A DNA stretch of 8,314 nt from a virus (lineage: Duplodnaviria; Heunggongvirae; Uroviricota; Caudoviricetes): positions 1-8,314 of IMG/VR virus record IMGVR_UViG_2778261154_000010; one strand, given 5' to 3'. Positions 1 to 8,314 of this stretch are shown here, piece after piece. Each line of letters opens with the position of its first letter. Position 1 is the first letter of the stretch. Made by a program: the position numbers and the translations under genes. The notes under the pieces were generated by a model. The model did not search any database and was not told where the DNA came from. It saw only the letters and a program-made list of their open reading frames with translations.

Positions 1-13
1 TTTTTCTGCTCAT
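1..13 (-). CDS. Start of an unidentified minus-strand gene running off the window (only 4 codons, MSRK, visible)
   Basis: ATG at 13..11 preceded by AGGAG (plus-strand CTCCT at 20-24) with a 6-nt spacer, downstream of the stop of the 75..455 gene. Too short to assign a product. Confidence 0.3.
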
Positions 14-74
14 TATTAGCTCCTTCTGATGCCATTCTATTTCAGGAAGGAGTGTCCGTTAAACTCAGGCTACC

Positions 75-455
75 TCAGTTTGCCGCATGCAGTGATGGCA
101 GAATCACATAATCCTGCTGTTTTTCAGTAAACGCAGGGATTGGCTGAACAACTTCTGTCACATCTGCATGCTGACCCGTGTTTTCTGTTCCGGACGCTTC
201 CTGTCTGGCTGTTTTTTCACTCTCAGTCCCTCTCTGTGGGATTAAATCCACAACGGGGGTTTCACGATACCCGGCCTGTTTTTCCTCATCGCCGGATGTC
301 AGCCACCACATCGGGCCTTTGTTGTCTGCCTCACCCCGACGCTTCAGTTTCCACAGCTCGTTGATTGCTTCATCCCGGGTCATGCCCAGGCGTGCTGCAA
401 CTTCCTGTGAAGAGGCTTTTCCCATTGCTTTCAGTGCGTCAAAAACGGTCTCCAT
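75..455 (-). CDS. Small phage protein of unknown function, possible winged-helix fold, immediately downstream of P
   Basis: ORF track 75..521; I prefer the internal ATG at 455 (METVFDALKAMGK...), which has GGGAGA 9 nt upstream. The ATG at 521 has AGGAG only 1 nt away and would overlap P. The segment SSQEVAARLGMTRDEAINELWKLKRRG looks HTH-like. Family assignment from memory is uncertain. Confidence 0.6.
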   Translation of the reverse strand: METVFDALKAMGKASSQEVAARLGMTRDEAINELWKLKRRGEADNKGPMWWLTSGDEEKQAGYRETPVVDLIPQRGTESEKTARQEASGTENTGQHADVTEVVQPIPAFTEKQQDYVILPSLHAAN

Positions 456-489
456 AAAATTTTTCTCCCGGTAAAAATCACTTCTCAAC

Positions 490-1155
490 TCAAACAAAAC
501 CAGCCGCTTTCCGGCGTTCATACTCCTGTTTCAGCAACTCAATTGGCGTTGGTCCCGCAGGACGTTTTGGTCCTGCCAGTTGTCGCCGGATGGGCGGAAC
601 ACTGAAGCCATTACCAACATGCTTTGCCCATTTCGTCAGTTGCCGTTCTGCAAGTCGTTTTAACTCCCCTTCGGTCATCTGCCGCTCAATCCCTTTTGAA
701 CGCATCTCGAGGCAGATGTGATACAGCACGGGCTGGGGCCACGGGTATTTATCGCTCCCGTCGTATCGCCAGGACTCATTGCGCCAGCGACGGTACTCTT
801 CCATCACGGCATCCACCGTCAGACCGAATGGATTGGCTCCGCTTTCCGAAATCAGCGCCACAAACTCAGCCAGGTCCGGAGGCCATGTTTCACCCGCCCG
901 ACAACGCTCCATGCACTGGCGGCAGACCTGCCGGATTTGCTGCTCAGTCATCGCGCCAATCTGTGCAATCCAGAGCTTCGAAGGTGCGGCTCCGTTCTTC
1001 CGGGTCCAGCGGTTCGAATAAACCTCCCCCATGAGTTCCCACAGCTTCCAGGCCGTTTCCGTCGCTGATAAATCCGTTTTCACGTTCCCACTGCTCACGT
1101 GCTGCCCGAATTTCCTGAACTGCCCGTGATGCGGTGCCACCTGGTGCTGCTGCAT
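490..1155 (-). CDS. Replication protein P-like (helicase-loader family of lambdoid phages)
   Basis: 221-aa ORF directly after the O-like gene. The C-terminal two-thirds resemble lambda P as recalled from memory (YPW motif, basic C-terminal tail). ATG at 1155 has a G-rich SD (AAGGGGGG) 5 nt upstream. An alternative start at 951 (MTEQQ) overlaps the O stop in an ATGACTGA arrangement. The 5-prime boundary is uncertain because 944-1155 is also covered by the O frame. Confidence 0.7.
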
Positions 1156-1984
1156 GGCTGCCCCCCTTGCTGACTGGTTTGACCTGTGCCCTGACGTGAT
1201 TTACGTGACGGGCGAATTTCTGCTCCCACTGAACCTGCGTGAACACTTTGCCCTCCGCCATCCAGTAATCCCGGAATGCGGCAAGTTCAGCAGGTGTAAA
1301 TTCCGGCTCCGGCAGAGCCACTCCCCACAATGCAGCCCGCCGTCGAAAATCCGGCGACGGATGCCAGCCATCGGTCATCGGAAATTTCCCGATGGGTTCA
1401 CTCAGGCCGTCCGGAAATTCAGGTTCCGCCACCTGCAACGGCGTACCGTTCGACTCGCTGGTCGGAGCACTCTCGCGCACGCGCGCGTTATGTGTGGGGT
1501 TTAATTCTTTATCTGTATCTTTATCTGTCGTGACTCGTCGTGACATGTCGTGACATATGCGTGACTCATCGTGACATCCCTCATCCTTTTTTCGTGATTT
1601 TTCCCTCTCACGCTGCGCTCTCTTCCGCTCTGCCGGGGATTTCGCGGTTTGCGAAACATTACCGTTATCCTCTTTCGCTACCTGGCGTTTTTCCCATCCG
1701 GTGATTAAATCTCCATCAAGTACCCGCCCCTGCATTGCCCGCAAAATTGAATCAATTGACTCTTCTGTCACGTCGAGCGCACTTGCCAAATCTTCTGTCG
1801 TGACATCAATGTGACCACGTCGTGACACGTCGTGACATGTCGTGACATTTCGTGACGCACTCACCAGAAGGTGAACATAAACCGCCATCACCGTTGCGAT
1901 TGGCTGCCCTGACACCCTGGAAATTGTTCGCCACTTGGGATCATTTGGCATGTCATGCCATAATCTGAGCCATGAAGTAGCCAT
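944..1984 (-). CDS. Phage replication initiation protein, O-like / replisome organizer, containing origin iterons
   Basis: 346-aa ORF with an N-terminal wHTH-like segment ([25 protein letters not shown]), a charged low-complexity linker and a C-terminal domain, followed by a P-like gene. Two arrays of CGTGAC 10-bp repeats lie inside it, as iterons do in lambda O. Its start ATG sits 2 nt after the stop of the upstream ORF (TAATTATG). Confidence 0.75.
1528..1575. repeat. Iteron array 1: five phased copies of (T/G)CGTGAC at about 10-bp spacing, flanked by an AT-rich tract (1500-1527); putative ori
   Basis: CGTGAC at 1529, 1539, 1549, 1560 and 1570, with a degenerate CGTGAT at 1593. The adjacent ttaattctttatctgtatctttatctg is AT-rich. 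Lies in the linker-coding part of the O-like gene. Confidence 0.6.
1798..1856. repeat. Iteron array 2: six phased copies of the same CGTGAC(A) 10-bp unit inside the N-terminal coding part of the O-like gene
   Basis: CGTGAC at 1799, 1821, 1831, 1841 and 1851, plus TGTGAC at 1810; spacing 10-11 bp. Same unit as array 1, about 270 bp away. Confidence 0.55.
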
Positions 1985-1986
1985 AA

Positions 1987-2718
1987 TTAATACCAGCGCT
2001 CCGCTACCAGTTTTTTCCAGTTCCGGGTATCCTGGTACGCAATATCAATACCGTGACTAAGGTTCATATCACGGAACCATTGACGCTGCTCCCAGATCTG
2101 CCATCTGCGACATTTCACTTTCTTCGGGATTACCAGGACTGAAAGAACACCAAGAACCGGTGCTTTCCCTGTATAACGTCTTCGGGCATAATCACGTCTG
2201 CATACTGCCTTTAGACCAAAGTAAACCCCTGACGGAAATACAATCACAGCGCCAGCCAGCAGAACCAGGAGTAATCGGCGAGAACCATGGATACTATCTG
2301 GAGTGAATTTGTTACCTTGTTCAATACGAATCCAGCTCTCATTTCGTTCATATGGACCGTGATTACCTTTGGGTTGGGTATCTGTTTCGGTCATTGGCTG
2401 GCAGTAAACAGGGACAGACGCAAGGAATTCAACGCAATCGCAGATCCTATCGCGGCCGAATTGATGCAAAAAATTAACCTTGCCAGAAAAGGGCTTCTCA
2501 ACATAGTGCAAATTAGCCCGCGTGATATCGCTGAACTCGAAAGAATGCTTAGCGCCAGGAAAGCGCGAAGACTCAGCCATGCCTTCATGGCATATGAGAA
2601 GGCATGCGAAAATTGCGGTAGTTATTCTGTTGATGGTCTTTACGAATTTCACTCCCCCGAGATTTTTATTAAAGGGGCTGAAAACCTTCTGGTTTTTCTC
2701 AAGCGTCGATGATTTCAT
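1987..2718 (-). CDS. Hypothetical 243-aa protein embedded in the early operon between ydaT-like and O; predicted hydrophobic segments near the C-terminus
   Basis: ATG at 2718 lies 11 nt after the ydaT-like stop with GAGGA 7 nt upstream. Its stop TAA is 2 nt before the O start, and O has no good SD of its own, which suggests translational coupling. Codon usage in 1987-2286 is E. coli-like (ctg, ccg, cgt, ggt). Caveat: the 5-prime 430 bp is antisense to a plausible plus-strand ORF, so only one of the two may be real. Confidence 0.5.
2287..2712 (+). CDS. Hypothetical 141-aa single-pass membrane protein, antisense to the early operon (possible moron or exclusion-type gene)
   Basis: ORF with a clean N-terminal TM helix ([24 protein letters not shown]) followed by NRDRRK and an amphipathic helical domain, so a very protein-like sequence. 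AGGAG at 2267-2271 is 15 nt from the ATG, which is poor spacing. It is the exact codon-aligned antisense frame of the 1987..2718 ORF, so it could be a shadow ORF. Confidence 0.35.
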   Translation: MDTIWSEFVTLFNTNPALISFIWTVITFGLGICFGHWLAVNRDRRKEFNAIADPIAAELMQKINLARKGLLNIVQISPRDIAELERMLSARKARRLSHAFMAYEKACENCGSYSVDGLYEFHSPEIFIKGAENLLVFLKRR

Positions 2719-2728
2719 TAATGCTTCC

Positions 2729-3154
2729 TCAATGTACAGCCACGGCATTTCCCGCCGGGCCACCACGATTCATCTGGTTGAAACCGGCGATCGCCACTGC
2801 GACAAAATCATCAGCATCTCTCACCAGTCGTTCCCGCGTCTCCACCAGCTCCCGAAAATAAGCTGAACTGTGGCTGCGCATTCTGGCCACCAGCAAAGGT
2901 GGCATTGCCTTTTCGATCGCTGGTAACAACGCCTGAATTTTTTCAACTGCATCAGGGGTGTCTTTCTCCACCCAGCGGAAAATTTTCTGAGTATTGCGAG
3001 CCAGGGCTTCCGGATGTGAATCGTCGTACAGCTCCGGAAACGTCATTCCCAGTTCAAAATACGCTTTGGTAATCTCTGCAGCCGGTACTTTCTCACCGTC
3101 CGGATGCGCCCAGGTATTCATCGCCATGCGGATGTGTTCATGCCTGATTTTCAT
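2729..3154 (-). CDS. ydaT: YdaT-like protein (cII-position gene of Rac-type prophages)
   Basis: 141-aa ORF (MKIRHEHIRMAMNTWAHPDGEK...) immediately downstream of, and overlapping by 17 nt, the Cro/YdaS-like gene. GGAG sits 7 nt upstream of the ATG at 3154. Size and position match the YdaS-YdaT pair of Rac-like prophages; the assignment is from memory. Confidence 0.7.
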   Translation of the reverse strand: MKIRHEHIRMAMNTWAHPDGEKVPAAEITKAYFELGMTFPELYDDSHPEALARNTQKIFRWVEKDTPDAVEKIQALLPAIEKAMPPLLVARMRSHSSAYFRELVETRERLVRDADDFVAVAIAGFNQMNRGGPAGNAVAVH

Positions 3155-3410
3155 GAATCAACTCCGGTTCATTTGATCTGTTAACCTTACATCCAACAGG
3201 TAAACCGTCGGTCGGGTTAGGGTATTTATCAGGGCGCAATTCATGCGGAGTCACTCCCCAGTCAAGCGCCTCACATGCAGGAATAACCTCCTCCGCAGGA
3301 ACTCGTTTTTTAAACCACCCACTTATGGTTTGTGGAGTTTTACCAAGACGACGCCCTAATTCTGATTGGCTCATTATCGACAGGATTTTTATTTGAGTAC
3401 TTTTTTGCAT
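3138..3410 (-). CDS. Cro/YdaS-like HTH DNA-binding protein (first gene of the early operon)
   Basis: ORF track 3138..3422 begins at a TTG. I prefer the ATG at 3410 (MQKSTQIKILSIMSQSELGRRLGKTPQTISGW...), which has GGAGGG 4 nt upstream. The HTH is near the N-terminus and an LRPD motif near the C-terminus is typical of YdaS/Cro-like proteins. Divergent from the repressor gene. Confidence 0.75.
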   Translation of the reverse strand: MQKSTQIKILSIMSQSELGRRLGKTPQTISGWFKKRVPAEEVIPACEALDWGVTPHELRPDKYPNPTDGLPVGCKVNRSNEPELIHENQA

Positions 3411-3536
3411 GTTTCCCTCCAAACTTTACGATGGTATCGATAATTACAAATTTAATTTTAAATTTCAACTTCTATTTGTAATGCCACTTATCAATTTTTT
3501 CTGTAGAATTGCGAGATTAGTTTTCGAGGGGTGGTG
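3411..3536. promoter_or_regulatory. Divergent promoter/operator region between the cro-like and repressor genes
   Basis: AT-rich 126-bp intergenic region. Contains the 15-mer AATTACAAATTTAAT (3442-3456), which recurs exactly at 4684-4698, plus a partial inverted partner ATTTGTAA (3475-3482). Candidate -10 TAGAAT at 3504-3509 for the repressor gene; candidate -35 TTGAAA on the minus strand for the cro-like gene. Confidence 0.55.
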
Positions 3537-3929
3537 ATGATCTTTGTAAAACGCCTTCAGCAGGTGTTGCAGGAATTGAATATAAACCAGTCAGAGCTGG
3601 GAAGACGTCTTGGTGTAAAACCCCAATCCGTGCAAGGTTGGTTGAAAGGCGTGATGCCAAGAATGGATAAACTGGAAAAATTAGCAGAGCTCTCACAACA
3701 TCCCGTCCATTGGTTCTTTATGGAAGAAGAAGCTCTCGGCGATAAGATGGCTGTATCCACTAATGACAACCAACCGCAACTTACAGAACAGCAACGAAAA
3801 ATCATATCGCTTTTAGATGAGTTACCTCAAAGCGACGCAGAGCAGATCATTCGAGATATGGAGCAAAAACGCGATTTCTATAAACGAAAACTTGAAGAGT
3901 TACTGCGGCAGAAAAACAAAACTGCCTGA
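3537..3929 (+). CDS. Prophage immunity repressor, XRE-family HTH (DicA/RacR-like)
   Basis: ORF track 3531..3929 begins at a GTG; the ATG at 3537 has GAGG 6 nt upstream. N-terminal HTH (QSELGRRLGVKPQSVQGWLKG) and a C-terminal helical region resembling DicA as recalled. Divergent from the cro-like gene. Confidence 0.8.
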   Translation: MIFVKRLQQVLQELNINQSELGRRLGVKPQSVQGWLKGVMPRMDKLEKLAELSQHPVHWFFMEEEALGDKMAVSTNDNQPQLTEQQRKIISLLDELPQSDAEQIIRDMEQKRDFYKRKLEELLRQKNKTA

Positions 3930-3975
3930 TGCGTTCCTTTTCTGGAACGAGTATCAGGCAAATGACTAGCAGATT

Positions 3976-4335
3976 TTATAATCCCACCAAGCTTTCCAAG
4001 GGGATACCAAATTGATTATGAAGACGGCGAATCATTGGTAACGTAAGGCTTCTGGTGCCATTCAACACCTCGTAAACCCGATTTTTTTTCCCAATTGCGG
4101 GTTCCAAATCTTTCACGGTCAGCCCCTGCTGTTCCATGCGAAATCTTATAGCTTCAATTGGGGATGGTGGCTCAATGGGATAATGTTTTTTTTCATATTC
4201 CTCTATTAGCAAACACATCACCTCAAAGAAATCCCCCTCAGGCGTGTTAATTTCCGGTTCATTGTCGAACATAGGCTCAACAGCACGCAACGCGGCTTCA
4301 TAATCTTGCTCTGTACGAATAGGTTTGATGTTCAT
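3976..4335 (-). CDS. higA: HigA-like antitoxin (XRE-family HTH) of a type II toxin-antitoxin pair
   Basis: 119-aa ORF starting 2 nt after the toxin stop, with GGAG 5 nt upstream. C-terminal HTH (GLTVKDLEPAIGKKNRVYEVLNGTRSLTLPMIRRLHNQFGI) typical of HigA antitoxins. Toxin-first gene order is typical of HigBA. Confidence 0.75.
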   Translation of the reverse strand: MNIKPIRTEQDYEAALRAVEPMFDNEPEINTPEGDFFEVMCLLIEEYEKKHYPIEPPSPIEAIRFRMEQQGLTVKDLEPAIGKKNRVYEVLNGTRSLTLPMIRRLHNQFGIPLESLVGL

Positions 4336-4337
4336 GC

Positions 4338-4640
4338 TTACTCCAGTTCGATGGTATCAGCATCAATGGCATCGTATTCCTTGTGGCTTCCGATGAATTT
4401 AACAAATACCCATCCTCGCTGATACGCAATTGCAACAATTAAACGGTAATGATTACCTTTTATGTTGAATACCACACGCCGGCTTTTCAATATACTAGCC
4501 GTTCGGTATTGTGCCTTAATGTCTGCCGGGCTTTTCCAGTCAGCTTTTGCTGCCTCATCCACCCATGCCCTTAGCGGTTGTTCTGCATCGGGATTCTCCG
4601 CCCAAAAATCCCTGAGTGTTTTAACTGAGATGATCTTCAT
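4338..4640 (-). CDS. higB: HigB-like toxin (RelE/ParE superfamily mRNA interferase)
   Basis: ORF track 4338..4685; I prefer the ATG at 4640 (MKIISVKTLRDFW..., 100 aa) because a sigma70-like promoter sits inside the upstream extension. The motif NIKGNHYRLIVAIAYQRGWVFVKFIGSHKEYD parallels the E. coli HigB C-terminal region as recalled. Confidence 0.7.
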   Translation of the reverse strand: MKIISVKTLRDFWAENPDAEQPLRAWVDEAAKADWKSPADIKAQYRTASILKSRRVVFNIKGNHYRLIVAIAYQRGWVFVKFIGSHKEYDAIDADTIELE

Positions 4641-4646
4641 AACTGC

Positions 4647-4675
4647 ATGATAGTCCCATTTTGGGACTAATGCAA
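4647..4675 (-). promoter_or_regulatory. Putative higBA promoter with a palindromic operator in the spacer
   Basis: Minus strand reads TTGCAT - 17 nt - TATCAT, with the perfect inverted repeat TAGTCCCA-AAA-TGGGACTA (4651-4669) filling the spacer. The -10 ends 6 nt before the ATG at 4640, implying a leaderless or near-leaderless toxin mRNA. Confidence 0.5.
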
Positions 4676-4683
4676 TCGTTCGC

Positions 4684-4743
4684 AATTACAAATTTAATAA
4701 TAAATATATTGACCAATTAAATTTTAATTTGTAGATTGTATCC
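4684..4743 (+). promoter_or_regulatory. Putative early-left (dicB-operon, Pb-like) promoter with repressor operators
   Basis: -35 TTGACC (4709-4714), 17-bp spacer, -10 TAGATT (4732-4737). The 15-mer AATTACAAATTTAAT (4684-4698) lies just upstream of the -35 and its degenerate inverted partner (ATTAAATTTTAATTTGTA) fills the spacer. Confidence 0.55.
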
Positions 4744-4912
4744 ATCAACCCACCCCGCCCCACAGAACGCAGGGCAATACTTCGAGTTACCAGGCAGTGG
4801 TCAGGGGTTAAGTAGCCAGCCCGAGGCGTAAGAACATGACGGCAGGGTTCAAATTTTGCAGTGCAGCAGGTTTTAGTTCCGCCACCCGGCGTTAAGGGGA
4901 AATGAGGTCAAC

Positions 4913-5068
4913 ATGAATACTATCGATCTTGGCAACAACGAATCTCTGGTATGTGGCGTGTTCCCCAACCAGGATGGAACGTTCACCGCCATGACTTATA
5001 CCAAAAGCAAAACGTTTAAAACCGAAGCTGGCGCGCGTCGCTGGCTGGAAAGAAACTCAGGTGAGTGA
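4913..5068 (+). CDS. ydfA: YdfA-like small protein (51 aa)
   Basis: ATG at 4913 with GAGG 5 nt upstream; MNTIDLGNNESLVCGVFPNQDGTFTAMTYTKSKTFKTEAGARRWLERNSGE. Size and position as first gene of a ydfABC-dicF-dicB operon as in Qin; below the ORF-track length cutoff. Confidence 0.7.
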   Translation: MNTIDLGNNESLVCGVFPNQDGTFTAMTYTKSKTFKTEAGARRWLERNSGE

Positions 5069-5069
5069 T

Positions 5070-5198
5070 ATGGATTTCGACACAATCATGGAAAAGGCTT
5101 ACGAAGAATACTTCGAAGGCCTTGCCGAAGGCGAAGAAGCTCTCAGCTTCAGCGAATTTAAACAGGCGCTTTCCAGTTCGGCAAAATCTAACGGCTGA
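5070..5198 (+). CDS. ydfB: YdfB-like small protein (42 aa)
   Basis: ATG at 5070, 1 nt after the ydfA stop, with AGGTGA 6 nt upstream; MDFDTIMEKAYEEYFEGLAEGEEALSFSEFKQALSSSAKSNG. The ORF track instead shows a 90-aa ORF in another frame (5065..5337), which I reject. Confidence 0.7.
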   Translation: MDFDTIMEKAYEEYFEGLAEGEEALSFSEFKQALSSSAKSNG

Positions 5199-5226
5199 TA
5201 AGCGAAACAGCACGCGAGGAATCAGT

Positions 5227-5337
5227 ATGCAGAAACGAGAACCCGTCATCATCGCGCCAGACTATACCGATGATGAACTTTATGAGTGGATTTTGGCGGC
5301 ATCAGTTTCATTGCTGGCTGATGTCCGCCCTTTTTAA
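5227..5337 (+). CDS. YdfC-like short ORF (36 aa) whose 3-prime end reads through the DicF-like sRNA sequence
   Basis: ATG at 5227 with GAGGA 6 nt upstream; MQKREPVIIAPDYTDDELYEW.... The stop TAA lies in the terminator T-tract. Shorter than K-12 YdfC as I recall it, and the tail may be fortuitous translation of the sRNA region. Confidence 0.4.
   Translation: MQKREPVIIAPDYTDDELYEWILAASVSLLADVRPF
5279..5335 (+). ncRNA. dicF: DicF-like small RNA (cell-division inhibitor sRNA of dicB-type operons), divergent variant
   Basis: The core GGCGGCATCAGTTTCATTGCTGGCTGATGTCCGCCCTTTTT closely resembles K-12 DicF as recalled, and the following AAAGTGAATTTTGTGATG..GGTGAATGCGGCT.AGCGCACGCGG also resembles the K-12 downstream sequence. 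The 5-prime end is set by processing and is approximate. Confidence 0.7.
5295..5335 (+). terminator. Rho-independent terminator forming the DicF 3-prime end
   Basis: Stem GGCGG-c-ATCAG (5295-5305) pairs with CTGAT-gt-CCGCC (5318-5329), leaving a 12-nt loop, followed by CTTTTT (5330-5335). Confidence 0.65.
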
Positions 5338-5619
5338 AGTGAATTTTGTGATGCGGTGAATGCGGCTAAGCGCACGCGGCACAGTTAAAAGTCATGTTAG
5401 TCCTTATTGTTTTGGGTGGGAAAGCCGACTGTAATTGTTAACTGGTTAACGTCACCTGGAGGCACTAGGCACCGCATCAACAAAGTTCACTTCGGTGATG
5501 AAAGGAAAGAGAAAATGTTGAATGTAGCTATTGAAAACCAGAACGGGTGGAATTATAGTGCACCTGCACCTCATAAAACGGGTGCCGGGATTAGCACCCC
5601 GAAAGTTACTCGAGCGCAT

Positions 5620-5642
5620 AACCGCGCTGAAGCGGTTTTTTT
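5620..5642 (+). terminator. Short hairpin plus T7 tract; weak candidate intrinsic terminator or attenuator
   Basis: AACCGC-gctgaa-GCGGTT followed by a run of seven T (5636-5642). The stem is only 6 bp, so function is uncertain. Confidence 0.3.
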
Positions 5643-5808
5643 ATGCGTAATGCACAGCTACATTCAAATTATGGTGAGGCGTGCGGGGCAGCCGCAAGGC
5701 TGGCCGGGTTCTCGAGTGACCGGTAGTGCTAACCCTGTGCGTCTCACCACCCATGAGATTAGCACCTCTGGTGGTGAGTTAATTAACTTATCACTTGAGG
5801 ATGTCATT

Positions 5809-6357
5809 ATGGCTACTACCCTTTCTCACCCTGACGTAACCATCGAAAATGGTCGCGCCGTCACTACTTCTATTTCGATTGCTGAGTTTTTTGGCAAGCA
5901 GCATCACCATGTTGTTCAAAAAATAGAATCCCTCGAATGTTCTGAACTATTTTTAACCAGCAACTTTTCGCGGGTTAAATTTGAACACCGCGGCAATTCT
6001 TATAACGCCTACCAAATCACCAAAAACGGCTTCGTTTTCCTGGTGATGGGCTTCACTGGCAAAAAAGCCGCTGCATTCAAAGAGGCATACATTGCTGAGT
6101 TCGACCGCATGGAGGCCGAACTGCGCCAGAATAACACCCCACCTGCTGACAAGATGATTCCGGGTGATGGTCGCACTCTGGTTGTTCACTTCGACAAATT
6201 CGGCAATGTCGAATTCACCGAAACCGTTCCTGATGGCGCACTGGTCTGTACCCTGGAGACTTTCCGGTTTTATCTGGAAAAACAGGGATGGACTCTTGTT
6301 AACCGGGGCGCAATTAAAAATATGACTGTGGAACAATTACTCAAAATTCATTGTTGA
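5809..6357 (+). CDS. rha: Phage regulatory protein Rha (pRha domain) inserted between DicF and dicB
   Basis: MATTLSHPDVTIENGRAVTTSISIAEFFGKQHHHVVQKIESL...FVFLVMGFTGKKAAAFKEAYIAEFDRMEAEL matches the Rha-family N-terminal domain as recalled. GAGG sits 8 nt upstream of the ATG at 5809. The ORF track extends the frame to 5407, but the extension is not protein-like. Confidence 0.75.
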   Translation: MATTLSHPDVTIENGRAVTTSISIAEFFGKQHHHVVQKIESLECSELFLTSNFSRVKFEHRGNSYNAYQITKNGFVFLVMGFTGKKAAAFKEAYIAEFDRMEAELRQNNTPPADKMIPGDGRTLVVHFDKFGNVEFTETVPDGALVCTLETFRFYLEKQGWTLVNRGAIKNMTVEQLLKIHC

Positions 6358-6367
6358 GGACGCAATA

Positions 6368-6556
6368 ATGGAGACGTTATTACCAAACGTTAATACGTCT
6401 GAAGGTTGTTTTGAAATTGGTGTCACTATCAGTAACCCTGTATTTACTGAAGATGCCATTAACAAGAGAAAACACGAACGGGAGCTATTAAATAAAATAT
6501 GCATTGTTTCAATGCTGGCTCGTTTACGTCTGATGCCAAAAGGATGTGCACAATGA
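6368..6556 (+). CDS. dicB: DicB cell-division inhibitor (62 aa)
   Basis: METLLPNVNTSEGCFEIGVTISNPVFTEDAINKRKHERELLNKICIVSMLARLRLMPKGCAQ is near-identical to E. coli K-12 DicB as recalled. GAGGA sits 7 nt upstream of the ATG. Confidence 0.9.
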   Translation: METLLPNVNTSEGCFEIGVTISNPVFTEDAINKRKHERELLNKICIVSMLARLRLMPKGCAQ

Positions 6557-6744
6557 ATACAGTATTTGCACTCGTTCTGACGGTTTTTCTTGTTTCCGGT
6601 GAACCGGTTGACATGGTTACTGGCGTATACAGCTCAATGAAAGAATGTATGACTGCCGCAGCGAAACAGAAAATTCCCGGTGACTGTTATCCGGTCGATA
6701 AAGTTATTCACCATGATAATAACGAAATCCCGGCAGGTCTTTAA
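6553..6744 (+). CDS. ydfD: YdfD-like small membrane/lysis protein (63 aa)
   Basis: ATG at 6553 overlaps the dicB stop (ATGA). MNTVFALVLTVFLVSGEPVD... has an N-terminal hydrophobic segment and closely resembles K-12 YdfD as recalled. The ORF track shows a longer 6499 start that overlaps dicB. Confidence 0.8.
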   Translation: MNTVFALVLTVFLVSGEPVDMVTGVYSSMKECMTAAAKQKIPGDCYPVDKVIHHDNNEIPAGL

Positions 6745-6828
6745 AACAGTTCCGTAATAAATATCCGGTTTCATTCTTATATGCCAGCAATGGCAGGGGT
6801 TCGCTCAACCTTAATTAAGGAGAAAAAC

Positions 6829-7026
6829 ATGATTACCAGTTATGAAGCCACTGTTGTAACTACTGATGACATTGTTCACGAGGTTAATCTGGAAGGAAAG
6901 CGTATTGGCTACGTGATTAAGACAGAAAATAAAGAAACCCCATTCACTGTGGTTGATATCGACGGTCCATCAGGCAACGTTAAAACACTTAACGATGGTG
7001 TAAAAAAATGTGTCTGGTGCACATAG
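6829..7026 (+). CDS. Hypothetical small protein (65 aa) ending in a CVWC motif
   Basis: ATG at 6829 with a strong AAGGAG 5 nt upstream; the ORF-track start at 6781 would include that RBS. MITSYEATVVTTDDIVHEVNLEGKRIGYVIKTENKETPFTVVDIDGPSGNVKTLNDGVKKCVWCT. No confident family assignment. Confidence 0.6.
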   Translation: MITSYEATVVTTDDIVHEVNLEGKRIGYVIKTENKETPFTVVDIDGPSGNVKTLNDGVKKCVWCT

Positions 7027-7102
7027 GAAAGAATCTGCCCGCAGAAAAAAAAGCCGAATTTCTGGCAACTCTGATTGCAATGAAATTAAAAGGTGAAATC
7101 TG

Positions 7103-7132
7103 AAAAAAAGAAAGCCTGCACACTGTGCAGGC
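7103..7132 (-). terminator. Hairpin with a U-tract on the minus strand: intrinsic terminator oriented against the flanking plus-strand genes
   Basis: Perfect 8-bp stem GCCTGCAC / GTGCAGGC (7114-7121 and 7125-7132) with a 3-nt loop. On the minus strand it is followed by TTTCTTTTTTT; on the plus strand no T-tract follows it. Confidence 0.4.
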
Positions 7133-7202
7133 CTGAGTGAAGAACCTGGGACATTTATTCATCACTCGCAGTAATTTTAATCTGAGTTGAGGTTAAAAAA
7201 CA

Positions 7203-8314
7203 ATGAGCACCGATAAACAAGTTTACCCACTGTATTACGAAGCAAAAAATGACAAAGTAAGAAAACGCCTCGGTATTAAAGGCGGTTTTTACTGGGCTGA
7301 AGCGAAAAAATTATCCATTGCCATCTCCCGTGGTGCTGTTGCGATTGACGATGCAGGCTACGATGAAGATGACTTTAAAAAACCTGTTCACGTCAATTTG
7401 CCCGTTGTTGATGACCTCCCGCCAGAAGGCGTGTTTGATACGGAATTCTGCAACCGTTACGAAAAAGGCGGGGAAGATGGCATCACAATGGTATTTATCG
7501 CATCTTCTCCCTCTGTTCAGGACAAACCAGCCAGCACTGACAATACCAACGTCAACGGCGAAGACATGACAGAAATTGAGGAGAACATGCTCCTGCCAGT
7601 TTCCGGTCAGGAACTGCCCATTCGCTGGCTTGCGCAACACGGCAGCGAAAAACCGGTAACGCACGTTTCACGCGACGAACTCCAGGCATTACACATTGCT
7701 CGGGATGAAGAACTACCGGCTGTTACTGCTCTGGCTGTTTCGCATAAAACCAGTCTGCTCGACCCGCTGGAGATTCGCGACCTCCACAAACTCGTGCGTG
7801 ATACTGACAAAGTTTTCCCTAATCCTGGCAATTCAAATCTGGGACTGATGACTGCTTTTTTCGAAGCATATCTGGATGCCAACTACACCGATCGCGGTCT
7901 GCTGACAAAAGAGTGGATGAAAGGAAATCGTGTTTCGCGTATCACTCGCACGGCTTCCGGTGCTAATGCTGGCGGCGGGAACCTCACCGATCGCGGCGAA
8001 GGTTTCGTCCACGATCTGACGTCGCTGGCGCGCGACGTAGCCACTGGCGTACTGGCCCGTTCAATGGACGTGGATATTTATAACCTTCATCCGGCACACG
8101 CTAAACGTGTCGAGGAAATTATCGCTGAAAATAAACCGCCCTTTTCTGTTTTCCGCGACAAATTCATCACCATGCCTGGCGGGATGGATTATTCCCGCGC
8201 CATCGTGGTTGCGTCAGTGAAAGAAGCACCGATTGGTATCGAGGTCATCCCCGCGCACGTCACTGAATATCTGAACAAGGTACTGACTGAAACCGATCAT
8301 GCCAACCCTGATCC
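7203..8314 (+). CDS. recE: RecE-like (exodeoxyribonuclease VIII family) N-terminal region, open at the 3-prime window edge
   Basis: Uninterrupted frame from ATG 7203 to the window end (at least 370 codons); it is absent from the ORF track presumably because it has no stop in the window. Segments such as [43 protein letters not shown] and [20 protein letters not shown] match the Rac RecE N-terminal region as I recall it. Its position at the distal end of the early-left operon fits a recombination gene. The family call is from memory and not verified. Confidence 0.55.

Follow-up and report, generated by a model that had tools for sequence, protein, structure and literature searches.

A probable IsrK-C4 RNA immunity module upstream of rha in a Qin-like prophage

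Results

The region upstream of rha matches two RNA families

The window is the whole 8,314-nt stretch of caudoviral DNA that was analyzed (IMG/VR record IMGVR_UViG_2778261154_000010, positions 1 to 8,314). Positions 5497-5808 very probably form an RNA-based module for immunity and antirepressor control, with 5337-5492 as a separate element, and we put the probability of this reading at about 85%. The module belongs to the family that includes c4 of phages P1 and P7, seqA/CI of satellite phage P4, and IsrK/STnc1160(orf45) of Salmonella Gifsy-1. By analogy with these systems, the switch upstream of rha would have two RNAs: IsrK, a small decoy, and after it C4, an antisense RNA released by processing that occludes the regulator gene's ribosome site. 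The system has been described before, and nearly all features listed in a first-pass annotation of this DNA map onto it, so the module is not new. Feature coordinates are collected in Table 1.

The first-pass annotation proposed a covariance-model scan for known RNA families. Rfam isrK and C4 both scored above their gathering scores in the window, in 20 close homologous loci, in 6 distant phages, and in P4 itself. The 265-nt transcript folds with z = -5.4, which is structure well above chance and bears out the description of the region as rich in structure. The suspicion that the competing helices belong to a riboregulator or a processed noncoding RNA was right in kind: the RNAs are IsrK and C4 by Rfam, and their targets include the rha ribosome binding site. 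Conservation was measured in alignment A1, which holds 46 unique prophage homologues. Most of its sequence diversity comes from IMG/VR and GenBank phages because the Rha scan of the genome collection yielded only 12 loci. The C4 stems are conserved and covary across these 46 homologues; covariation in homologous prophages was another check put forward.

Table 1. Features between dicF and the end of rha in the window
Feature	Position	Strand	Evidence and details
DicF-like sRNA variant with terminator hairpin	5281-5330	+	Rfam DicF RF00039, 43.3 bits, below gathering score 48; context only
Conserved dicF-dicB spacer, long imperfect hairpin	5337-5492	+	Outer stem 5337-5358 / 5470-5492; interior variable
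Near-palindrome GTTAACTGGTTAAC	5437-5450	+	Inside spacer; small hairpin predicted in minimum-free-energy fold
Long ORF, Ash then Rha domain, 280 codons	5515-6357	+	AAGGA at 5502-5506 precedes ATG; P4 eta analogue
Internal sigma-70 promoter TTGAAA-17-TATAGT	5531-5559	+	Promoter scan, 10/12 matches; predicted start near 5566
IsrK sRNA (P4 seqA)	5566-5642	+	Rfam isrK RF01394, 68.5 bits, gathering score 50; 5' hairpin, second hairpin with b1 (5589-5598) in its loop, a1 5605-5614, Rho-independent terminator 5620-5642
C4 antisense RNA (P4 CI; Gifsy-1 STnc1160)	5667-5754	+	Rfam C4 RF01695, 78.6 bits, gathering score 45; predicted mature RNA about 5672-5749; loop a' (CUCGAGUGA) 5708-5719; single-stranded b' 5725-5735
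ATG, equivalent of first Gifsy-1 orf45 AUG	5671-5673	+	In frame with rha, no intervening stop
Alternative helix	5743-5778	+	5743-5751 pairs with GGTGGTGAG (5770-5778); perfect 9-bp inverted repeat
b2, downstream target of b'	5757-5766	+	Exact repeat of b1
Leader hairpin	5765-5800	+	CCUC pairs GAGG of rha Shine-Dalgarno; GGUGGUGAGUU pairs a2; inverted repeat
a2, target of a'	5791-5801	+	Overlaps rha Shine-Dalgarno GAGGA (5797-5801), 7 nt before ATG 5809
rha short form, 182 aa	5809-6357	+	Same-frame nested in long ORF; Phage_pRha; PHROG antirepressor families

IsrK has its own predicted promoter and terminator

The assignment to isrK combines a score above the gathering value with a dedicated predicted promoter and a predicted Rho-independent terminator. 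All A1 rows share the -35 hexamer, and all but L003 (TATAAT) have TATAGT as the -10 hexamer. The spacing between the -35/-10 pair and the 5' end of IsrK is the same in the 6 distant phages and in P4, and the promoter is predicted to be the equivalent of PisrK and of P4 PLE. The terminator scan found a 6-bp stem, a 6-nt loop and a run of seven T residues at 5620-5642; what had been described as a weak terminator at this position is thus real and is the terminator of IsrK. Hfq binding and activation of a downstream antirepressor in trans by IsrK were shown for Gifsy-1 only (PMC4825925). The Rfam c4-a1b1 model (RF03163) stayed below threshold in the window (23.8 bits at 5553-5605; gathering score 46.7). 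The a1 and b1 sites are present, but as parts of a terminated sRNA of the IsrK type, which explains the low score. Stx2a_F451 scores 50.6 bits on this model.

A 12-bp perfect inverted repeat (5518-5529 / 5656-5667) brackets the promoter and IsrK, and by our own estimate about 0.01 such repeats are expected by chance. It has a central mismatch in 42 of the 46 homologues, and no pair is changed on both sides. As a whole, the module is inserted with respect to K-12 Qin and lies between AAAGTTCA and AAAATTCA.

C4 is a complete, covarying structure

The C4 match spans model positions 1-87 of 87. A 76-nt element at 5673-5748 had been annotated with a 9-bp closing stem; the element and both of its hairpins are real and correspond to C4, but the closing stem is 17 bp (5672-5688 with 5733-5749). 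It encloses a CAGCC-GCAA-GGCUG hairpin and a GCCGG/CCGGU hairpin, so that the structure is the long closing stem around a capped hairpin and a second hairpin that characterizes C4, with support from covariation. The fold has a free energy of -46.3 kcal/mol (z = -4.6), a value matched by no shuffle. In the C4 helices, 27 base pairs form in 99-100% of the 46 sequences, and both partners have changed in 11 of these pairs. All 55 unique modules parsed keep an ATG at C4 position 5; the Gifsy-1 orf45 AUG lies at +107 (PMC4825925).

The target sites change together with the C4 loops

C4 exposes two segments, a' and b', that are complementary to the upstream sites a1 and b1 and to the downstream sites a2 and b2 on one transcript. 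The downstream target reaches into the ribosome binding site of an antirepressor-type gene. Complementarity read from the sequence pairs a' with a1 in IsrK and with a2 over the rha Shine-Dalgarno. The repeat GATTAGCACC at 5589 and 5757 constitutes the b1 and b2 sites, and GTGCTAA is C4 loop b'. Both the repeat and the GTGCTAA/TTAGCAC inverted pair lie exactly as the first-pass annotation placed them.

The three copies of each specificity element covary in the 46 homologues, which fall into 15 a-types and 9 b-types. Loop differences in C4 are associated with the differing immunity specificities of P1 and P7. For a':a1 and b':b1 together, 12 of 20 pairs are changed on both sides, with a covariation score of 0.54 versus 0.14 in shuffles, and all 5 core pairs of b':b2 have changes on both sides. 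The a':a2 columns of A1 are 56% paired at register 0, because the alignment shifts the a2 types by about 2 columns. The case for a2 is accordingly built on a per-sequence duplex test, in which duplex energies replaced the column-wise count. The duplexes between a-loop and leader had a mean of -15.3 kcal/mol for cognate and -9.0 kcal/mol for non-cognate combinations of the 15 types. Cognate duplexes are thus stronger by about 6 kcal/mol for a, and by about 3 kcal/mol for b across its 9 types.

Two further helices compete in the leader. The alternative helix is the 9-bp stem reported earlier. Its 5' strand re-uses the 3' side of the closing stem of C4, with CC added, and its 18-nt loop contains b2. 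It is 99% paired in the 46 homologues, with 2 pairs changed on both sides; it covaries to TCGCCACC / GGTGGCGA in L125, L177 and L194 and is retained through G-U pairs in L191 and L018. The leader folds at -26.4 kcal/mol (z = -3.4), and of the 35 leader variants folded, 34 have no less than three-quarters of the Shine-Dalgarno paired. In the minimum-free-energy fold of the full transcript, a1/b1 are paired with a'/b' and the Shine-Dalgarno is hidden in the leader hairpin. This fold matches 'structure A' of Gifsy-1, which was tested there by compensatory mutations (PMC4825925).

The rha frame is kept open through the RNA module

The rha frame had been noted as improbably long upstream of the gene, and this was borne out: 136 codons are open upstream of ATG 5809, back to TAG 5398, a length that only 10 among 20,000 mononucleotide shuffles attained. 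Of the 46 unique homologues, 43 keep the frame from ATG 5515 open and in phase, and 3 have +1 T frameshifts. Distinct stop-creating columns numbered 0, 17 and 15 in frames 0, 1 and 2, and 0, 12 and 9 when variable columns alone were counted. Length differences from type to type are multiples of 3 (291, 294 and 297 nt). Selection keeps the rha frame from ATG 5515 open.

The long product matches Phage_ASH (Pfam PF10554) at residues 14-105 (E = 2.3e-17) and Phage_pRha at residues 117-200 (E = 6e-26). Translated 5554-5829 covers Phage_ASH profile positions 1-102 of 107 with 63.8 bits. PGAP picks the start at ATG 5515 in a 98.8% identical genome. The rha product matches PHROG 995 and 518 and antirepressor families, and its short form is an analogue of P4 kil in position only. 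An ORF that runs through IsrK and C4 from upstream of the promoter is also present in ST64B, 1720a-02, phiP27 and Hafnia yong2; P88, Stx2a_F451, two Arsenophonus loci and L177 have no open in-frame ORF through C4. No upstream ORF overlaps the long ORF at the window's locus; in ST64B, sb41 overlaps sb40 by 4 nt.

No function is assigned to Phage_ASH (PMC8951638). Because its nucleotides are under selection for RNA pairing, the Ash 'domain' may reflect a conserved RNA translated in an open frame, not a folded protein domain. The coincidence of Phage_ASH with the IsrK-C4 region may explain the absence of a known protein function. A noncoding RNA and a long Rha N-terminus had been posed as opposites. 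That opposition does not hold, as the frame is under selection and corresponds to Phage_ASH; the P4 paradigm sets RNA elements inside a translated ORF, and both readings can therefore apply.

The dicF-dicB spacer is a separate element

Positions 5338-5808 had been treated as one unit upstream of rha. This grouping was not upheld, as 5338-5492 is a separate spacer hairpin common with K-12 Qin. The spacer (5337-5492) is 79.6% identical to the homologous E. coli K-12 Qin spacer, contains inverted repeats, and folds at -56 kcal/mol (z = -3.5). Its outer stem is 89.7% paired in the 46 sequences, with changes that are one-sided and of the G-U kind only. The near-palindrome GTTAACTGGTTAAC is present as described but begins one base earlier than had been given. 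It is retained in 44 of the 46 A1 rows (the exceptions are L086 and L022) and in K-12 Qin.

On the dicF side, a terminator-like site lies at 5298-5325. The alignment with K-12 dicF begins only at about the 13th base, which fits a divergent 5' end, and several homologous loci attain the DicF gathering score. An STnc100/PasD identity for 5342-5484 was considered and rejected. Rfam RF02076 gave 30.1 bits against a threshold of 47 over a partial model (22-154 of 206), the gathering score was reached in 0 of 20 homologous loci, and the context in a 2026 Pas sRNA preprint is unlike that of the window.

Discussion

A model for the control of rha

Transcription from the internal promoter is predicted to begin at about 5566. 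By analogy with Gifsy-1, most transcripts would end at the terminator as the 77-nt IsrK, and some would continue into C4 and the rha leader. C4 may then be cut out of the read-through transcripts, as RNase P does in P1 and P4. The exposed segments a' and b' would pair with a2 and b2 of the leader, a step for which complementarity and covariation are observed. Since the a':a2 duplex covers the rha Shine-Dalgarno, initiation at ATG 5809 would be blocked. The leader is also predicted to fold on itself into the hairpin that hides the same Shine-Dalgarno. Because IsrK holds a second copy of the targets, it could base-pair with the C4 region, whether in cis or in trans. Pairing in cis gave the translationally silent 'structure A' in Gifsy-1, and extra IsrK supplied in trans activated the downstream antirepressor there (PMC4825925); the action of IsrK on the C4 region of the window is modelled on this.

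The 280-codon ORF starts upstream of the internal promoter, so translation from ATG 5515 could take place only on transcripts of the upstream dicB-operon promoter. Passage of ribosomes over IsrK, C4 and the targets would be expected to melt these structures and bypass immunity, as reported for P4 eta. The Ash-Rha ORF of this Qin-like prophage would then be a two-promoter switch of the P4 eta type, possibly with a network of cross-talk among the a and b types. We advance this extension tentatively, at somewhat less than even odds, and by analogy. If it is true, internal-promoter transcripts would yield only IsrK and C4 while rha stays shut. On transcripts from the repressor-controlled dicB-operon promoter, translation would start at ATG 5515 and pass across IsrK, C4 and both targets. 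Translation through the module would melt its structures and give an N-terminally extended Rha, and may allow read-through into dicB. The a- and b-types, a mosaic of 15 by 9, may form a cross-talk or hetero-immunity network among prophage copies, which have a median of 2 and reach 11 per E. coli genome; 12,284 E. coli places were counted in all.

Other explanations

One alternative to regulation by RNA is that the region is plain coding sequence for a long Rha N-terminus with a true Ash domain and that its RNA structures are incidental. The ORF from ATG 5515 is open in nearly all homologues with stops excluded from its frame, a Shine-Dalgarno-like AAGGA or AAGGTGA precedes that ATG, a curated Pfam family matches, and the long ORF is annotated by PGAP and in several phages. 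The variable segments, however, change at all codon positions and yet do so as complementary triplets of sites, a pattern that points to selection on RNA pairing and not on amino acids. The stems covary and use G-U pairs, a promoter conserved in position and a terminator lie within the ORF, two Rfam families match far above threshold, and some modules are without any ORF. The P4 'cI protein' from which Phage_ASH was seeded is itself an RNA according to the P4 work that PMC3632133 and PMC10111431 cite. We consider the coding explanation highly improbable. Still less credence goes to the repeats and palindromes being protein-binding or recombination sites in the DNA, a possibility raised in the first-pass annotation. 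Inverted and direct repeats are many, and the module is inserted relative to K-12 Qin. Against this, the many conserved G-U pairs of the plus strand would turn into C-A mismatches in the opposite strand or in a DNA cruciform, covariation keeps pairing and not sequence, and the repeats map exactly to known RNA elements.

Among explanations that invoke RNA, a cis-acting attenuator or riboswitch would respond to a ligand or to ribosome position and make no trans RNA. It would account for the terminator upstream of a gene and for the conserved, mutually exclusive helices, namely the C4 closing stem, 5743-5751/5770-5778 and the leader hairpin. The Rfam matches up to E = 1 include no riboswitch or leader family, and the element instead fits known families of trans-acting RNAs. 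The hypervariable, mutually complementary sets of loops and targets indicate RNA-RNA specificity and not a ligand pocket, which makes this reading very unlikely. An arrangement centred on IsrK deserves more weight, though it too is unlikely. The C4 region would then be mRNA only, an orf45-like leader opened by IsrK in trans, with no processed antisense RNA. IsrK supplied in trans raised anrP translation about 100-fold in Gifsy-1, mutations of the orf45 start and stop lowered activation, and constitutive STnc1160 did not counteract IsrK (PMC4825925). The ATG at C4 position 5 is present in every module parsed, but the conserved AUGG could equally be the 5' end of the closing stem. Moreover, covariation with the C4 loops extends from a1 and b1 to a2 and b2, which pairing between IsrK and C4 alone does not need, and a2 overlaps the rha Shine-Dalgarno. 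The P1 and P4 homologues are processed trans repressors in the literature consulted (PMC8198154 for P1; PMC3632133 and PMC10111431 for P4).

If the IsrK-C4 module works as proposed, it decides whether the antirepressor-type regulator Rha is made, a role known in outline from P1, P4 and Gifsy-1. It would thereby bear on prophage induction and on cross-talk between co-resident E. coli prophages, including Stx phages. Annotation pipelines label the region as protein only ('Rha family', 'Ash family') despite the two Rfam RNAs within it.

Comparison with known systems

The closest parallel in layout is the Gifsy-1 isrK-orf45(STnc1160)-anrP region (Hershko-Shalev et al. 2016, PMC4825925). Both have the promoter, IsrK with its terminator, a C4-like region starting with AUGG, and a gene of the Rha/antirepressor type. 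Both Rfam families are shared, as is the pairing of mid-IsrK with the C4 loops ('structure A', helix b-I), and the C4 fold corresponds to 'structure B'. Gifsy-1 orf45 ends in an AUGA overlap with anrP that provides translational coupling, whereas AUG 5671 of the window runs stop-free into rha. With the orf45-like AUG fused in frame to rha, the coupling step cannot equal that of Gifsy-1. The window's frame is also open from ATG 5515, upstream of the promoter, unlike in Gifsy-1. The module of the window lies between dicF and dicB in a Qin-like operon, and that of Gifsy-1 lies downstream of antQ. In Gifsy-1, IsrK activates orf45 translation, and constitutive STnc1160 did not relieve IsrK toxicity (PMC4825925).

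The equivalence of IsrK with seqA and of C4 with CI, and the occurrence of the pair in lambdoid prophages, were noted by Barquist et al. 2013 (PMC3632133). The P4 immunity region comprises PLE, seqA, CI RNA and seqC, with eta and kil nested. Rfam isrK matches seqA and Rfam C4 matches CI, and in P4 as in the window the promoter lies directly upstream of seqA/IsrK. The RNAs sit inside a Phage_ASH ORF in both (in P4 the 'cI' ORF over CI RNA), with a shorter, same-frame nested product and a downstream gene of antirepressor-type function. P4 eta includes the constitutive promoter, seqA and CI, has kil nested inside, and suppresses termination when it is translated from a promoter further upstream (Forti et al. 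1999, as reported in PMC10111431). In P4 the ORF stops where it overlaps epsilon, of the Derepression family, whereas the Ash part in the window is fused to the Rha domain. Control in P4 is described as premature transcription termination, whereas in the window the nested start has a2 directly on its Shine-Dalgarno.

In P1 it is the ribosome site of the small icd gene that is blocked, which exerts polarity on ant. The P1/P7 immI region (c4, icd, ant) was compared through the RNA family and the literature. It shares Rfam C4 with the window, together with two loops that each match an upstream and a downstream site (Citron and Schuster 1990, as cited in PMC8198154 and PMC2864571). In both, the downstream target lies over a ribosome binding site that precedes an antirepressor. 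The emphasis of the published models differs, with C4 as a repressor in P1 (PMC8198154) and IsrK as an activator in Gifsy-1 (PMC4825925). Compared with a1 and b1 of P1/P7, those of the window sit within an IsrK-type terminated sRNA.

IsrK and C4 RNAs upstream of rha

The interval between the DicF-like RNA and rha contains an isrK RNA and a C4 antisense RNA, and both exceeded the curated Rfam thresholds in a covariance-model scan. The first-pass annotation had read this interval as a riboregulator or non-coding RNA upstream of a regulator gene. That general interpretation is right, its observations were accurate, and every feature it listed is present in the sequence. The weak terminator belongs to IsrK. 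The 76-nt element with GNRA and CCGG hairpins is C4, with a closing stem of 17 bp instead of 9, and the near-palindrome placed at 5438-5451 lies one base away at 5437-5450. The repeats GATTAGCACC are two target sites, b1 upstream in IsrK and b2 downstream in the rha leader, and GTGCTAA is the exposed C4 segment b'. A second set was missed. The CCGG hairpin has a 12-nt loop (a', CUCGAGUGA) that is complementary both to a1 within IsrK and to a2, which overlaps the rha Shine-Dalgarno GAGGA 7 nt upstream of the start codon.

The fold of the 265-nt transcript 5566-5830 is much more stable than those of its shuffles (z = -5.4), and the predicted minimum-free-energy structure of the window transcript matches structure A of Gifsy-1. 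Six distant phages and P4 have a -35/-10 pair at the position of the predicted promoter, amid unrelated surrounding sequence; in P4 this pair is PLE. The internal promoter and IsrK lie between the arms of a 12-bp inverted repeat, TTGAATGTAGCT with AGCTACATTCAA, that is perfect in the window. A single central mismatch interrupts it in 42 of 46 homologues, with no both-sided change, and only transcripts from upstream could form the pairing.

Features of the window and the DicF-to-rha interval
Feature	Position	Strand	Remarks
Lambda-P-like, DnaT-domain, YdaT, YdaS/Cro-like, HigBA pair		minus	replication and immunity genes
HTH repressor-like gene	3531-3929	plus	followed in order by ydfA (DUF1391), truncated ydfB/C region, DicF-like RNA, studied region, rha, dicB, DUF1482 gene
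HigB-like toxin (PF09907) and HTH antitoxin	3976-4685	minus	between repressor-like gene and ydfA
DicF copy	5281-5330	plus	43.3 vs Rfam threshold 48; 5' end unlike K-12 DicF
Spacer hairpin	5337-5492		fold z -3.5
Inverted repeat	5518-5529/5656-5667		
Sigma-70-like promoter, TTGAAA-17-TATAGT	5531-5559		promoter scan; predicted transcript start is the IsrK 5' end
isrK	5566-5642		68.5 bits vs gathering score 50
b1, b2	5589, 5757		
a1, a2	5605-5614, 5791-5801		
C4	5667-5754		78.6 bits vs gathering score 45
b'	5726		
Alternative helix	5743-5751/5770-5778		99% paired
rha	ATG 5809	plus	
dicB	6368-6556	plus	

Covariation of C4, IsrK and the rha leader

Homologous loci were fetched by a search with the 182-aa Rha only (92 loci), so the set has no bias toward an open upstream frame. 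The window was aligned with 45 unique upstream regions. In the C4 fold, 27 pairs reach 99-100% pairing, and 11 of them have changed in both partners; the IsrK helices are uninformative because they are nearly invariant in this set. The specificity elements are hypervariable, yet all three copies change together. Both-sided change occurs in 12 of the 20 b':b1 and a':a1 pairs, with a covariation score of 0.54, where shuffles score 0.14 and slid partners no more than 0.11, and the b':b2 core pairs changed on both sides in all five cases. The a2 columns are misaligned, so duplex energies were computed for each sequence. The a-loop:leader duplex has a mean of -15.3 kcal/mol for cognate and -9.0 kcal/mol for non-cognate partners, the corresponding b-loop values are -8.3 and -5.5 kcal/mol, and energies against the IsrK sites were similar. 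The 15 a-types and 9 b-types are found in 21 combinations.

The alternative helix, first noticed as mutually exclusive with the closing stem of C4, covaries in the alignment. Where the closing stem differs it becomes TCGCCACC with GGTGGCGA (L125, L177 and L194), and loci L191 and L018 have G-U-containing versions. A leader hairpin is the third competitor, pairing CCUC with the Shine-Dalgarno GAGG and GGUGGUGAGUU with a2, and in 34 of 35 folded leader variants three quarters or more of the Shine-Dalgarno is paired. A DNA-level binding or recombination site had been offered as the alternative to a riboregulator. Many of the conserved pairs are G-U on the plus strand, which argues for RNA structure on that strand over structure in the DNA.

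The hairpin at the upstream edge of the interval is separate, conserved and common to the K-12 dicF-dicB spacer. Substitutions in its 22-bp outer stem preserve pairing through G-U on the plus strand, and its interior is hypervariable, indels included. Its match to STnc100 falls below the Rfam threshold. The dicB operon transcript is cut by RNase III and RNase E, which releases DicF. A 22-bp stem would suit RNase III, and the spacer hairpin may be the RNase III processing site of this transcript, an idea that draws on Faubladier et al. 1990.

An open frame through both RNAs

The rha frame is open by selection. The first-pass annotation judged its openness unlikely by chance, and the 136 open codons upstream of the rha start were reached in 10 of 20,000 shuffles. 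Ahead of ATG 5515 lies AAGGA or AAGGTGA, in most sequences also a stop at 5499 or 5506, and the frame from this ATG reaches rha open and in phase in 43 of the 46 unique sequences. The three exceptions have one extra T each in a T-run, and the lengths of the types, 291, 294 and 297 nt, differ in steps of three. Between the two ATGs no alignment column creates a stop in the rha frame, compared to 17 and 15 distinct columns in the other frames (0, 12 and 9 in variable columns). Selection is concluded because the chance of the 0/17/15 pattern is about (2/3)^32, assuming equal rates.

The long translation matches Phage_ASH (PF10554, E = 2.3e-17, profile positions 1-102 of 107) and then Phage_pRha, and PGAP calls the long form a 'Rha family' protein in a 98.8% identical genome. 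Annotated ORFs likewise cross isrK and C4 in ST64B (sb41), phage 1720a-02 (antirepressor), phiP27 (p16) and Hafnia phage yong2 ('Ash family protein'). The ORFs of the first three extend into a Phage_pRha domain, whose match in phiP27 is below threshold. P88, Stx2a_F451, two Arsenophonus loci and L177 lack such an in-frame ORF. In P2-like P88 (1407-2063 of locus L193) an open frame starts upstream of IsrK, traverses C4 and continues 654 nt over the entire annotated derepression gene (1757-1987) in a different frame.

Prophage setting and spread

The window is a piece of a Qin/Rac-like lambdoid prophage. Compared to E. coli K-12 Qin, 5292-5489 is the dicF 3' part and dicF-dicB spacer (79.6% identity), 6342-6798 is dicB and ydfD, and 5490-6341, with all of the rha coding and control sequence, is an insertion that separates the spacer from the dicB ribosome site. 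Its short flanks, AAAGTTCA and AAAATTCA at 5484-5491 and 6343-6350, suggest that the module was gained or lost through recombination at a short repeat. A K-12 stretch of about 500 bases, inside ydfC to early dicF (289-794 of the fetched Qin locus), has no counterpart in the window, and ORF 5065-5337 therefore extends into the DicF sequence.

Of 5,426 complete E. coli genomes, 4,688 contain sequence like 5200-5900, at 12,284 places in total. The median is 2 copies per genome, with up to 11, so co-resident modules of the same or different a/b types are common. Some IMG/VR prophage contigs have a pair of C4 copies separated by about 415 bases, or two in one locus (L033, 942-1029 and 1357-1443; L114; L189), which look like tandem duplications of the module.

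Proposed mechanism and comparison with known systems

By analogy with the studied systems, C4 would be excised by RNase P and its pairing with a2 and b2 would block initiation at the rha start. IsrK, with its decoy sites, would oppose C4 in trans and lock the read-through transcript in cis. Ribosomes from ATG 5515 on transcripts of the upstream operon promoter would traverse and melt the module, and this melting may give immunity-insensitive expression as in P4 eta.

The system is already known at all three levels, RNA family, protein family and mechanism; the value of this case is as an annotation note, that the 'Ash domain' falls on the IsrK-C4 RNA region. The Rfam C4 family was founded on P1/P7 c4. 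P4 seqA and CI have IsrK and C4 as structural homologues, and lambdoid prophages carry the pair (Barquist et al. 2013, PMC3632133). In P4, Rfam isrK matches seqA (8692-8615) and Rfam C4 matches CI RNA (8507-8420). The old 'cI gene product, 137 aa' CDS over CI RNA is Phage_ASH, and its end overlaps epsilon, the derepression protein. PF10554 matches the translations of window 5554-5829 and P4 8168-8584 (minus strand); it served as the epsilon profile in a survey of P4 satellites (PMC8628076), and P4 epsilon itself matches PF25738 (Derepression).

As Forti et al. 1999 is summarised by Mageeney et al. 2023 (PMC10111431), P4 eta holds a constitutive promoter, seqA and CI, and the internal-promoter transcript is terminated and processed to CI. 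In the same summary Kil is a nested truncated form of Eta, and full-length Eta is translated only from the upstream promoter, its translation preventing termination. In Gifsy-1 the central part of IsrK base-pairs with the C4 loops, which there form the 3' part of orf45, a pairing tested with G28A/C162U and G31A/C159U (Hershko-Shalev et al. 2016, PMC4825925). There IsrK activates anrP about 100-fold in trans, orf45 is translated, and the region downstream of IsrK yields STnc1160, an RNA that is processed and stable (PMC4825925). The window differs from these studied cases in that its Ash part does not end at an AUGA overlap but is joined in frame to Rha, its module is located between dicF and dicB, and its a/b types make up a wide mosaic.
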